A stretch of DNA of 64,000 nucleotides from a virus (Duplodnaviria; Caudoviricetes), in the IMG/VR virus record IMGVR_UViG_3300020434_000055, one strand, 5' to 3'. A model generated the notes under the pieces. That model made no database searches. It was not told the DNA's origin and worked only from the letters and a program-made list of their open reading frames with translations. The stretch's first letter is position 1. Each line of letters opens with the position of its first letter. The translations under genes and the position numbers were made by a program. Below, in pieces: positions 3,795 to 21,081 of the stretch.

Positions 3795-4424
3795 ATGGCA
3801 ACACACGGAAAAGCAAAAGAACTTATACCTTTATTAGGTATTACTGACGCTAGTGGTCAATTGTTTGAAAACATTGACGAGATCGGTGATGACCTAGTTA
3901 TTACTTCAAGTAATGCTGGAGCAAAAACTCTTGACATTCAAGCTGAGAGTGATACTAAATCTCAAAAAGGTCCAAACATATGGCTATCAAGAACTAACTC
4001 TAATCCACAAAAAGGTGGATATGGTGGTGCTATATGGTGGTCAACAAATAATGACGCTGGTGAGATGGTAGACTATGCTAATATGAACTTGGTTATATCA
4101 GATGCTAAAGACGGAACAGAAGACGGTAAGCTGGCTATTAATTTAAGATCAAACGGATCACGAGAAACTATTTTAAAATTTGATGGTAATGGAATTGAAT
4201 TAGCAATAGACAAAAGTTTTTGTTGGCAAAATTCTGGATATAAAAAGACTTTCTTAAAAGCACAGGCGACAGCTAAAAGAACTATTAAACTTCCTGATTC
4301 AAGTGGAGATGTTCTTGTTAATGATAGTGGAGCAGTATTTCTAACTGACCTTCCAACATCAGACCCTAGTGTTGCAAATCAATTGTGGAACGATAGCGGT
4401 ACATTAAAAGTATCAGCAGGTTAA
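3795..4424 (+). CDS. Putative virion/tail-fibre-related protein
   Basis: Gly/Ser/Asn-rich beta-type sequence ending LPTSDPSVANQLWNDSGTLKVSAG, a terminal motif I recognise from marine phage fibre proteins; TAAATA upstream. Confidence 0.5.
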   Translation: MATHGKAKELIPLLGITDASGQLFENIDEIGDDLVITSSNAGAKTLDIQAESDTKSQKGPNIWLSRTNSNPQKGGYGGAIWWSTNNDAGEMVDYANMNLVISDAKDGTEDGKLAINLRSNGSRETILKFDGNGIELAIDKSFCWQNSGYKKTFLKAQATAKRTIKLPDSSGDVLVNDSGAVFLTDLPTSDPSVANQLWNDSGTLKVSAG

Positions 4425-12885: not shown

Positions 12886-12959
12886 TGGTGGAGGATCTGG
12901 GAGTTGAACCCAGGACTCATCCATGCCATGGATACGTGATCCCGCTTCACCAATCCCCC
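12886..12959 (-). tRNA. tRNA-Ala(GGC)
   Basis: Cloverleaf GGGGGAT/ATCCTCC with G3:U70 Ala identity pair, anticodon loop ATGGCAT, T-loop TTCAACT, encoded CCA. Confidence 0.95.
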
Positions 12960-15855: not shown

Positions 15856-15884
15856 TTGACATTACCTTATAAATCTATTATAAT
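15856..15884 (+). promoter_or_regulatory. Consensus sigma70 promoter
   Basis: TTGACA(15856-61)-17 nt-TATAAT(15879-84). Confidence 0.8.
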
Positions 15885-15920: not shown

Positions 15921-16076
15921 ATGAAACGTAAAAAATTTAGATTAATTAGTAAAAAGAAATCTGTAGCATTTAGAGAACTAGCAGAAGGCTTTTGGTGCAT
16001 TGCCATTAAAGGACGACATTGGGCACAATTCAAGCATTGGTACCAAGAGTGGTGGAAGCCATTATACTGGGATTAA
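15921..16076 (+). CDS. Small basic Trp-rich protein (51 aa), not in ORF track
   Basis: MKRKKFRLISKKKSVAFRELAEGFWCIAIKGRHWAQFKHWYQEWWKPLYWD*; downstream of a consensus promoter. Confidence 0.6.
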   Translation: MKRKKFRLISKKKSVAFRELAEGFWCIAIKGRHWAQFKHWYQEWWKPLYWD

Positions 16077-16094
16077 ACACAACCATAGATCCTA

Positions 16095-16123
16095 TTGACA
16101 TAAATCATAAAATATACTACAAT
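16095..16123 (+). promoter_or_regulatory. Sigma70 promoter for the tRNA-like pair
   Basis: TTGACA(16095-100)-17 nt-TACAAT(16118-23). Confidence 0.75.
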
Positions 16124-16143: not shown

Positions 16144-16220
16144 TGGCTGGTAGTGTAATCGTTAAGAAAGCACACTAGGATCTCCAATCCTAAAATCTTG
16201 GTTCAATCCAAGTCAGTTAT
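16144..16220 (+). tRNA. Non-canonical tRNA-like gene, best read as Gly(TCC)
   Basis: Acceptor TGGCTGG/TCAGTTA (three G:U pairs), D-stem GTGT/GCAC, anticodon stem TAGGA/TCCTA with loop TCTCCAA (C33), 4-nt variable loop, T-stem CTTGG/CCAAG with 6-nt loop TTCAAT, discriminator U, no D-loop GG, no CCA. Confidence 0.6.
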
Positions 16221-16242: not shown

Positions 16243-16331
16243 GCGAGTGTGGTGGAAATGTGATTAGACACACCGATTTCAGAGATCGGCACCCGTAGCC
16301 GGGTTTTATGAGTAAAATCTCATCACTCGCA
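16243..16331 (+). tRNA. Non-canonical type II tRNA-Leu(CAG)-like gene
   Basis: Perfect acceptor GCGAGTG/CACTCGC, anticodon stem CCGAT/ATCGG with loop TTCAGAG, variable arm ACCCG/CGGGT, T-stem ATGAG/CTCAT with 6-nt loop TAAAAT (no TTC), discriminator A, no D-loop GG, no CCA. Confidence 0.7.
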
Positions 16332-16406: not shown

Positions 16407-16490
16407 ATGGCTAAAAAGAAAAAAGCTAAAGCTAAAACTAAGAAAAAGAAAAGTAAAAGCAAAAGCAAAAAGAAAAAAAGTAGAAGATAA
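16407..16490 (+). CDS. Lys-rich 27-aa peptide, not in ORF track
   Basis: MAKKKKAKAKTKKKKSKSKSKKKKSRR*; GGAG SD upstream. Confidence 0.65.
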   Translation: MAKKKKAKAKTKKKKSKSKSKKKKSRR

Positions 16491-16603
16491 GAATAAAATC
16501 CCTTCACACTTATATTGGAATTCGGACGAGTTGGTTCAACTCTGACGTCTATAAGTGTGACTGGGGAGTTAAAAGTCCTTCAAAGACGCTACTTAACAAT
16601 CCG

Positions 16604-16632
16604 TTGACAATACCAAAATAACCAACTATAAT
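16604..16632 (+). promoter_or_regulatory. Consensus sigma70 promoter of the RNase P RNA
   Basis: TTGACA(16604-09)-17 nt-TATAAT(16627-32); expected start near 16639, which is the first base of helix P1. Confidence 0.85.
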
Positions 16633-16638
16633 ATAACC

Positions 16639-16797
16639 ATAACTGGATCATCGCTGGGATTTATATCCTAGAGGAAAGTCAGGACACAGGTGGATATGTG
16701 CGAGTTCAAATAGGATGCCAAATATTCGACCACCGGGGCATCGGGTAGAACGCTTAGATTAATGATGATTTAAAACAGAATCCTGCTTACGGGTTAT
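16639..16797 (+). ncRNA. rnpB: Minimal RNase P RNA (catalytic domain only; no S-domain, no P18)
   Basis: GAGGAAAGTCAGGAC (16671-85) and ACAGAATCCTGCTTA (16775-89) form P4 with the bulged U; P1, P2, P3, P5, P6, P15, P16 and the L15 GGU all pair; AGATTAATGA matches the conserved J18/2 block. Confidence 0.92.
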
Positions 16798-16811
16798 ATA
16801 AAGGAAAAGGT

Positions 16812-17024
16812 ATGGTTAAAACATTAAAAAAAGAATATGAAAAAGGTGGCTCCCAGCGACAACATATTTTAGATAAAGCAGTCAAATATATATTAGATAC
16901 TCGCTTTGGTACGCAAAATCATAAACACATTTTCTTAATAGAAGAAGTAGGTTTAACTGAAACTGAATATTTAGAATGTTTAAATAAAGCTACCAATGGG
17001 GGAGTAATTTGGAACACAAATTAA
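16812..17024 (+). CDS. Hypothetical protein
   Basis: ORF track; SD AAGG upstream. Confidence 0.6.
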   Translation: MVKTLKKEYEKGGSQRQHILDKAVKYILDTRFGTQNHKHIFLIEEVGLTETEYLECLNKATNGGVIWNTN

Positions 17025-17653
17025 AAATAAGTCGAATGATAGATATCATTCAAGCTCATGCCCTGAGCTATCCGGGTGGCAGGCATATTGATAAAAGAGT
17101 TATATGGGCAATGACTCAGGTGCCTAGACATTTATTTGTAAAACACTTTCCATACGAAGATAGACCTGTACCAATCGGACACGAACAAACTATCTCTCAA
17201 CCTTTCATTGTTGCTTATATGAGTGATGTTATTGGCTTACAACCATTGCATAAAGTATTAGAAATAGGAACAGGCTCAGGATACCAAGCGGCTATACTAT
17301 CTCATTTAGCACATGAAGTTTATTCAGTAGAAAGAATTCCAGAGTTAACTGCAAGTGCAAAAAAATTATTTGAACATTTAGAGTATGACAATATTAAAAC
17401 AAAAATAAGCGATGGCTATGATGGATGGTCTGAAAACGCACCTTATGATAGAATTATTGTGACAGCAATGGCTAGTGAAGTTCCTGTTGAATTAACAAAA
17501 CAATTAGTAGATGGAGGAACAATGATTATTCCTGTTAATGGATCATTATTACTAATCACTAAAAAGAAAGAGTTAGCAGGTGTTCCAATAATAGAGGAAC
17601 AAACTTTAATAGGAGTAAGGTTCGTACCGCTTGTGAAAGGCATAAATGCATAG
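17009..17653 (+). CDS. pcm: Protein-L-isoaspartate O-methyltransferase
   Basis: VPRHLFV, YEDRPVPIGHEQTISQP, KVLEIGTGSGYQAA, YSVERI, DGYDGW...APYDRIIVTA. Confidence 0.95.
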   Translation: MEHKLKISRMIDIIQAHALSYPGGRHIDKRVIWAMTQVPRHLFVKHFPYEDRPVPIGHEQTISQPFIVAYMSDVIGLQPLHKVLEIGTGSGYQAAILSHLAHEVYSVERIPELTASAKKLFEHLEYDNIKTKISDGYDGWSENAPYDRIIVTAMASEVPVELTKQLVDGGTMIIPVNGSLLLITKKKELAGVPIIEEQTLIGVRFVPLVKGINA

Positions 17654-17654
17654 T

Positions 17655-17731
17655 GGGGGTGTAGCTCAGTTGGTTAGAGCGATCGCCTGTCACGCGATAG
17701 GTCGAGGGTTCGAGTCCCTTCACTCCCGCCA
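17655..17731 (+). tRNA. tRNA-Asp(GTC)
   Basis: Canonical cloverleaf, anticodon loop CTGTCAC, TTCGAGT, discriminator G, encoded CCA. Confidence 0.97.
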
Positions 17732-21005: not shown

Positions 21006-21081
21006 GCCCCTCTAGCTCATTAGGTAGAGCAACTGATTTGTAATCAGTAGGTGGCCTGTTCGAATCGGGCGGGGGGCACCA
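21006..21081 (+). tRNA. tRNA-Thr(TGT)
   Basis: Canonical cloverleaf, anticodon loop TTTGTAA, TTCGAAT, encoded CCA. Confidence 0.97.

Follow-up and report, generated by a model that had tools for sequence, protein, structure and literature searches.

Nucleotides 16639-16797 (+) of a 64,000-nt stretch of viral DNA (IMG/VR record IMGVR_UViG_3300020434_000055; the whole stretch, at its full length, is called the window below) almost certainly encode a real, conserved ribonuclease P (RNase P) RNA that lacks the specificity domain (S-domain). Only two ribozymes are universal, and RNase P RNA is one of them. To our knowledge, the two-domain design of bacterial RNase P, with a catalytic domain (C-domain) and an S-domain, is regarded as fixed, and we know of no natural losses of the S-domain other than those in Thermoproteaceae archaea and some mitochondria. 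A first-pass annotation of the window had listed the helices of this RNA and a TTGACA-17-TATAAT promoter in front of it, and base-by-base reading of positions 16604-16800 revealed all of them at the coordinates given there. The promoter, the RNA, its helices and its conserved regions (CR) are as follows.

16604-16632 (+): σ70-type promoter, TTGACA at 16604-09, spacer of 17 nt, TATAAT at 16627-32; 12/12 matches in a promoter scan
About 16639 (+): predicted transcription start, the first base of P1
16639-16797 (+): RNase P RNA, 159 nt; P1, P2, P3, P4, P5, P6, P15 and P16 kept, S-domain and P18 gone
16639-44 / 16792-97 (+): P1, ATAACT / GGTTAT
16646-52 / 16764-70 (+): P2, GATCATC / GATGATT
16654-60 / 16665-71 (+): P3, CTGGGAT / ATCCTAG
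16676-84 / 16781-88 (+): P4, AAG[T]CAGGA / TCCTGCTT
16671-16684 (+): CR-I, GAGGAAAG-U-CAGGA, J3/4 and the 5' strand of P4; the bulged U is 16679; invariant in 27 homologues
16685-88 / 16697-16700 (+): P5, CACA / TGTG, enclosing the P6 5' strand GGUGG and the linker AUA
16689-93 / 16730-34 (+): P6 pseudoknot, GGTGG / CCACC, with its 3' strand in the P16 loop
16694-96 (+): linker ATA, the sole nucleotides separating the P6 strand from the 3' strand of P5; normal site of P7-P14
16701-16751 (+): P15-P16 arm, starting with J5/15 CGA
16704-07 / 16748-51 (+): P15, GTTC / GAAC
P15/P16 internal loop (+): AAAUAG / GGGUA (L15, 16743-47), with the GGU 3'-CCA-binding motif at 16744-46
16714-19 / 16737-42 (+): P16, GATGCC / GGCATC
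16755-64 (+), within 16752-16789: CR-IV, UAGAUUAAUG, aligning to the RF00010 consensus (J18/2, AGAU.AAUG)
16775-80 and 16781-88 (+): CR-V, ACAGAA (J2/4) and the P4 3' strand UCCUGCUU, aligning to the RF00010 consensus

In P4, CR-I (GAGGAAAG[U]CAGGA, 16671-84) and UCCUGCUU (16781-88) form 8/8 pairs. An alignment of homologues showed that ACAGAA is invariant and the CR-IV string largely conserved, and that the linker replacing P7-P14 measures 0-3 nt.

Match to the bacterial class A model

The Rfam model of bacterial class A RNase P RNA, RF00010, aligned end to end (model positions 1-367) to 16639-16801, with 75.9 bits and an E-value of 2e-23 in a search run with E-value thresholds. In this alignment, the 155-position S-domain block of the model is replaced by 5 unaligned nucleotides, 3 of them unpaired (AUA), and the 24-position P18 block by none. 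A catalytic-domain match with the S-domain deleted is what the first-pass annotation had expected from the Rfam RNase P models. Present are the CR-I/CR-V P4 pseudoknot with its bulged U, CR-IV, J2/4, P1-P2-P3, P15/P16 with the L15 GGU, and P6; missing are P18 and the specificity domain P7-P14 with CR-II and CR-III, and the score stays under the gathering threshold. Because that threshold is 100 bits, the ribozyme is overlooked by routine annotation: a default gathering-score Rfam scan of the window returned three tRNAs only.

Within clan CL00002, the best-scoring model retained for the element was RNaseP_bact_a and not archaeal type T (RF02357); the L15 GGU, P6 and the σ70 promoter are likewise bacterial rather than type T features. 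Judged by this alignment, the element is homologous to, and derived from, bacterial class A RNase P RNA.

Relatives on viral, metagenomic and cellular contigs

Relatives were sought with a pattern made of the two P4 strands joined at mini-RNase-P spacing. The search recovered seven true homologues on IMG/VR viral contigs and many more on metagenome contigs, where the true ones were all marine. A covariance model, R1, was built from the first eight sequences and scores the window's RNA at 171.7 bits. It yielded 50 matches, 43 of an ultra-minimal form (one clipped by a contig end) and seven larger. The former represent 29 distinct sequences, divided among three sub-lineages, and span 145-159 nt from P1 to P1, the window's RNA being the longest. 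Beyond the window, 26 distinct sequences of the 145-159-nt form were found on marine viral and metagenome contigs.

The larger forms (L015-L021, about 200 nt) were matched by a wider-gap pattern and carry a vestigial hairpin at the site of the S-domain. One of them, a 207-nt reduced RNase P RNA at 82201-82407 (+) of G004, the contig of L017, scored 118.5 bits, above the Rfam gathering threshold; phage-family members of this kind could already be auto-annotated as ordinary RNaseP_bact_a. A reduced form was also observed in a cultured phage, Stenotrophomonas phage DLP6 (KU682439.2; loci L147 and L148), where a 249-nt RF00010 match (54.7 bits, E-value 3.3e-17) occupies 105774-106022 (+). It lies in an unannotated gap and ends 3 nt 5' of a tRNA-Arg-CCG, in ribozyme-then-tRNA order. 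Default Rfam thresholds (100 bits, against the 75.9 bits of the window's element) thus leave such genes unannotated, even in DLP6. The window's group, with 0-3 nt in place of P7-P14, is the extreme case and the most reduced form in this analysis.

In cellular genomes, represented by 185,579 prokaryote species with one genome each, the strict pattern matched only twice. The first match (L144), in a Saprospiraceae metagenome-assembled genome (MAG), was rejected as a reduced form, being a normal 424-nt RNase P RNA. The second (L145) is a 177-nt S-domain-less RNase P RNA at 3931-4107 (-) of an Elusimicrobia MAG scaffold of 20 kb (JACRNU010000015.1). It scored 72.4 bits with RF00010, has a GC content of 0.63, keeps P18, has its P15-P17 region cut to 13 nt, and sits within an array of at least six tRNA genes. 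By the strict pattern, then, the S-domain-less form is frequent among viral contigs and all but missing from cellular genomes.

Several searches were unproductive. A blastn search of 50,697 phage records with the element matched nothing, and a larger relative as query matched nothing but bacterial RNase P genes, in records with wrong labels. The first pattern applied to viral contigs, which required CAAATAGG and GGGTAG, was overly strict and gave no matches, while matches to a pattern with a gap of 48-78 nt were due to chance and lay within coding sequence. A sequence of about 185 nt from the human gut (L027, L032, L033 and about 50 more loci) also matched the pattern by chance and is not RNase P; this recurrent gut-metagenome sequence reads GATGCGCGTGG...GGAAAGTCGATACCCC...ACAGAAACCCGCTTCGCTG. 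Other metagenome false positives were 3' halves of full-size RNase P RNAs with GGAAAGTC in P15-P17. The metagenome false positives were filtered out by demanding GAGGAAAGTC and by the covariance model.

Covariation and conservation of the core

To obtain an alignment independent of the proposed structure, 27 distinct sequences were aligned with MAFFT, which is structure-blind. When the structure was laid on this alignment, 92.6% of cells paired normally, compared to 29-37% when the 3' partners were slid by one to three columns. Nineteen pairs were altered on both sides, in 133 cells, a level reached by none of 500 column shuffles. Double compensatory changes occurred in P1, P2, P3, P5, P15 and P16, with two-sided changes at 4/6 pairs in P1, 6/7 in P2 and 2/3 in P3. 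P6 was found as GGUGG/CCACC, GGUAG/CUACC, GGCAG/CUGCC and GCUGG/CCAGC, and also as GUUGAG/CUCAAC in a register shifted by 1 nt; the covariation score of this helix is lower because of that shift in some homologues. P4 is invariant within the ultra-minimal group, which is therefore uninformative by itself on P4 covariation. When compared with the larger phage relatives of about 200 nt, P4 does covary (CAGGA/UCCUG, CGGGA/UCCCG, CCGGG/UCCGG, CAGGG/CCCUG). The first-pass annotation had tied its reading to covariation of P4, P6 and P15; P6 and P15 were found to covary, and P4 to do so against the larger relatives.

The core strings GAGGAAAGUC, CAAAUAG, GGGUA and AACAGAAUCCUGCUUA are invariant, with the exception of CAAGUAG in L118 and L103. 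The alignment indicates that the full catalytic-domain fold and its known metal- and substrate-binding residues are under purifying selection. Taken together, the RF00010 alignment and the covariation bear out the initial claim of an RNase P RNA cut down to its catalytic domain.

A sub-threshold Rfam score and the loss of over half of the molecule are also what a decaying, functionless relic of a captured host rnpB gene might exhibit. We regard such an origin as very improbable. The covariation already contradicts it: 27 distinct sequences, which fall into three sub-lineages, share the architecture, seven of its helices show compensatory changes, and the core is invariant. The element moreover has its own consensus promoter and is present in RNA libraries (see below).

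Independent assemblies and RNA libraries

A neighbouring protein was found, in exact form, on 14 contigs; six of these loci were fetched from ENA, and all six contained the ribozyme, in identical copy in five cases and with one base changed in L002. A 541-nt stretch is complete in 14 DNA runs from at least eight seawater studies. In RNA libraries from four studies, contigs corresponding to 16660-16803, 16660-16793, 16686-16915 and 16728-16886 were observed, with 0-1 mismatches; the contig 16660-16793 is bordered by Illumina adapter sequence. Three of the four cross the P5-P6-AUA-P5 junction, and two bridge the 3' end of the ribozyme into the downstream open reading frame (ORF), ORF70 (16797-16812). 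Positions 16516-16623 and 16948-17649 were uncovered in all four RNA runs, and coverage starts in the 16624-16677 bin. Such coverage would be expected of a stable transcript that begins near 16639 and undergoes some read-through.

The first-pass annotation had named a collapsed assembly as a way in which its reading could fail. The probability that a full-length RNase P RNA was collapsed by assembly into the present form is, in our view, negligible, since identical DNA was assembled in many studies, the RNA-library contigs cover the element and cross its S-domain-less junction with 0 mismatches, and the same junction occurs in the 26 other sequences; no evidence in favour of an artefact was found.

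Phage origin and content of carrier genomes

Among the window genes are those for DnaK, HemE, SufB, NadA, protein-isoaspartate methyltransferase, TolC, CsgG and a CHASE2 cyclase; no phage hallmark gene was found among the window genes scanned, most of which are of bacterial type, for metabolism, chaperones and the envelope. Window proteins are 50-78% identical to products of genes on IMG/VR viral contigs that bear the same RNA. One such carrier genome, 328 kb long, has direct terminal repeats, a CheckV completeness of 100% and a gene for a large terminase. A bacterial chromosome as the source, considered on account of DnaK, HemE, SufB, NadA, TolC and CsgG, was dropped, since the window shares genes with terminase-bearing, terminal-repeat viral contigs. 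The claim that the RNA is encoded by a phage is thus supported indirectly, through gene sharing with viral contigs that carry the same RNA and through the 328-kb terminase genome. Phage origin appears well supported, from what is seen outside the window rather than inside it.

Five carrier genomes, two with the ultra-minimal form and three with larger relatives, were examined, and two of them are complete. Matches to the large terminase, TerL, were found in three of the five, and two of the five are complete with terminal repeats. RnpA (PF00825) was found in none of the five carriers, compared to 10 of 14 control genomes. Any protein partner of the RNA would then come from the host or be of a kind that went unrecognised. 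Each carrier has exactly one RNase P-like match, of the reduced form, and the numbers of tRNA matches were 16, 9, 47, 37 and 14. We conclude that the carriers are a clade of huge marine phages with many tRNA genes and without RnpA.

Association with tRNA genes

The core P1 is followed after 2-15 nt by the start of a tRNA for Gln, Ser, Asp or Ala in 25 of 27 distinct sequences, the exception being the window's lineage; part of this spacer is taken up by the longer P1 helices of the relatives. TTGACA- and TATAAT-like boxes are also present 5' of homologues. On ultra-minimal loci, 3'-CCA is encoded in 56 of 57 predicted tRNAs, and the 57th is clipped by a locus end. Downstream of the ribozyme, the window contains:

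16812-17024 (+): ORF70, 14 nt past the ribozyme
17009-17653 (+): protein-L-isoaspartate methyltransferase gene (pcm)
17655-17731 (+): tRNA-Asp, 3'-CCA encoded, 1 nt past the pcm stop codon

No terminator was found between the ribozyme and tRNA-Asp (16812-17731). In the relatives L007 and L111, the ribozyme has directly 3' of it a tRNA-Asp whose terminal 7 and 12 bases are those of the window's tRNA-Asp. The simplest reading is that two genes would have been inserted, in the window lineage, into an ancestral ribozyme-tRNA-Asp unit.

The window's three canonical tRNAs, at 12886-12959 (-), 17655-17731 (+) and 21006-21081 (+), all encode 3'-CCA and lie 0-1 nt from the stop codon of an upstream ORF. 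Cleavage by RNase P at these tRNAs would therefore cut mRNAs too.

A fourth, degenerate tRNA-like element is located at 16144-16220 (+). It scored 33.7 bits with the Rfam tRNA model (gathering score 29) and was missed by ARAGORN and by the whole-window gathering scan. Its anticodon loop is CUCCAAU (CCA, Trp), its acceptor stem is weak, CCA is not encoded, and it has its own TTGACA-17-TACAAT promoter at 16095-16123 (+).

The ribozyme might mainly cut tRNA-like or other structures in polycistronic phage mRNAs, for punctuation, maturation or decay, instead of bulk tRNA. The abutment of the three canonical tRNAs to upstream ORFs, with tRNA-Asp 1 nt past the pcm stop, is in line with such targets; so are the position of the ribozyme at the head of a terminator-free mRNA-tRNA operon, the degenerate tRNA-like element, and the relaxed specificity that loss of the S-domain should bring, as known for C-domain constructs. 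However, cutting of tRNA 5' ends within operons is ordinary RNase P work, a nuance rather than an alternative, and 25 of the 27 relatives simply neighbour a tRNA or a tRNA array. We therefore consider altered targets unlikely.

Proposed function

The element is probably a catalytic-domain-only RNase P RNA that acts, with host RnpA, as a tRNA 5'-processing enzyme. Bacterial C-domains on their own show weak cleavage of pre-tRNA, which RnpA stimulates, and RnpA contacts C-domain elements only. The RNA would be transcribed from its own strong promoter, and the catalytic core would fold and bind host RnpA, all RnpA contact sites lying within the retained domain. Core and host RnpA would then cut the 5' leaders off phage pre-tRNAs, at +1. 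With the S-domain gone, the T-loop/D-loop elbow would go unread, and docking would proceed via the acceptor stem, RCCA-GGU pairing and a protein-leader contact; reliance on RCCA-GGU agrees with the universal encoded CCA in the ultra-minimal group. In most relatives, the ribozyme would be the tRNA's own 5' leader, and a single cut would yield both the 5' end of the tRNA and the 3' end of the ribozyme. Trans cleavage, by another ribozyme copy or by host RNase P, seems likelier than cis cleavage because the spacers are short and the leader is partly paired in P1. Since two ORFs appear to have been inserted before tRNA-Asp, the window's ribozyme would be co-transcribed with an mRNA and may stay on it. 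Processing of phage tRNAs, relaxed specificity and use of host RnpA all gain in plausibility from four features of the carriers: they have no RnpA, their tRNA genes are many, these encode CCA, and the ribozyme lies next to tRNAs.

Some observations weigh against this picture. A single-sequence minimum free energy (MFE) fold showed no unusual stability (z = -0.75); pseudoknots are unmodelled in such a fold, and as this RNA has two pseudoknot helices, an unremarkable z is to be expected. The RNA-library contigs prove neither transcription, nor strand, nor ends, and DNA carry-over is possible. Several of the larger forms (about 200 nt) keep a GGU-like motif, yet their tRNAs are without CCA, so the link between CCA and GGU is suggestive only. 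Where the P1 of a relative is long, the tRNA leader is base-paired within it, an arrangement that may impede cleavage instead of promoting it. The window itself has no tRNA directly 3' of the ribozyme.

The retained features would also suit a decoy, which would not be a working enzyme and would titrate host RnpA, halting or reprogramming host tRNA maturation. The presumed RnpA contact regions are all kept while the reader of the tRNA elbow is lost, the promoter is a strong consensus one, and RnpA was not found in the five carrier genomes. On the other hand, elements of chemistry and docking that are irrelevant to protein binding (the bulged U, J5/15 AAA, the L15 GGU and P6) are invariant or covary, and a phage that brings 9-47 tRNA genes needs RNase P and would suffer from its loss. 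A decoy is, on balance, quite unlikely.

A variant of the tRNA-processing reading is possible, though doubtful: a ribozyme-substrate fusion, in which the RNA, as leader of a CCA-bearing tRNA, would carry out the maturation of both molecules almost or entirely unaided by protein, and may in addition, by seizing host RnpA, divert the cell's RNase P activity to phage tRNAs. If this were true, a core of about 145 nt would be the smallest catalytic unit of RNase P to suffice in nature, and phages would be seen to have a new takeover strategy.

Comparison with known RNase P RNAs

Class A RNase P RNA (RF00010; E. coli M1 RNA, the product of rnpB) shares with the phage RNA P1-P6, P15/P16, CR-I, CR-IV, CR-V, the bulged U of P4, the J5/15 adenosines and the L15 GGU. 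It is about 350-400 nt long, compared to 159 nt, and possesses P7-P14 (CR-II, CR-III), P17 and P18, which the phage RNA lacks. With these gone, the phage RNA would have no inter-domain tertiary contacts. Unlike class A RNAs, it is phage-borne, has no cognate rnpA in the carrier genomes checked, and lies directly 5' of a tRNA in most members.

Archaeal type T RNAs are about 200 nt long and keep some remnants of the S-domain. In Thermoproteaceae (Pyrobaculum), the type T RNA has mostly lost the S-domain and is reportedly still active (Lai et al. 2010, cited in PMC7191817). As a natural RNase P RNA minus most of the S-domain, it is the nearest natural analogue in design; it differs in having an archaeal core and archaeal protein subunits, and in being the cell's sole RNase P RNA and not a viral extra. 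Yeast mitochondrial RNase P RNAs are similar in size to the phage RNA, which, in contrast, keeps a complete bacterial C-domain including the L15 GGU. In ascomycetes, these RNAs (RPM1) are as short as about 140 nt and have lost S-domain elements; P2, P3, P15 and P6 are missing from them too, and they depend on Rpm2, a large dedicated protein.

Engineered C-domain or mini RNase P RNAs, which Green et al. 1996, Loria and Pan, and Wu and Kirsebom 2012 are said to have made, are reportedly about 200-260 nt long and usually retain P18; their cleavage of pre-tRNA is said to be weak, stimulated by RnpA and more dependent on the RCCA-GGU contact. They resemble the phage RNA in consisting of the catalytic domain alone, whereas the phage RNA is natural, shorter and conserved, with P5 closed by the P6 strand and 0-3 nt only. 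The other mini RNase P RNAs of phages (about 177-249 nt; L015-L021, DLP6) likewise have a reduced S-domain, lie in or beside tRNA arrays and come without RnpA; they carry the vestigial hairpin and are 40-90 nt longer than members of the window's group.

If active, the element would be about the smallest bacterial-type RNase P RNA, a natural experiment on the abilities of the catalytic core alone, and a small target for structural work; the phage would bring its own tRNA-maturation ribozyme along with its tRNA genes. No report of a phage-encoded RNase P RNA was found in the full-text literature searched, whose coverage mostly leaves out subscription journals, and a prior description is possible. 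Such RNAs are unmentioned in a 2024 review of the field, in the P Finder paper (PMC7191817) and in a study of the diverged RNase P RNAs found in bacteria of the candidate phyla radiation (CPR).

Other features upstream of the ribozyme

Just before the ribozyme promoter, at 16407-16490 (+), is a 27-codon ORF preceded by GGAG 7 nt 5' and encoding a near-pure Lys/Ser/Arg peptide, MAKKKKAKAKTKKKKSKSKSKKKKSRR. This Lys-rich 27-aa peptide was considered as a cofactor of the ribozyme and rejected, its ORF being absent 5' of the ribozyme in nine relatives. Between this ORF and the promoter, at 16504-16560 (+), an 11-bp perfect inverted repeat, TCACACTTATA / TATAAGTGTGA, surrounds a hairpin, GAGTTG-GTT-CAACTC, with no T-run after it. 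A second perfect TTGACA-17-TATAAT promoter is present at 15856-15884 (+), 5' of a 51-codon ORF (15921-16076), and a terminator-like hairpin was observed at 16286-16302 (site 16286-16310, +). Several very short transcription units seem to lie between 15850 and 16640.

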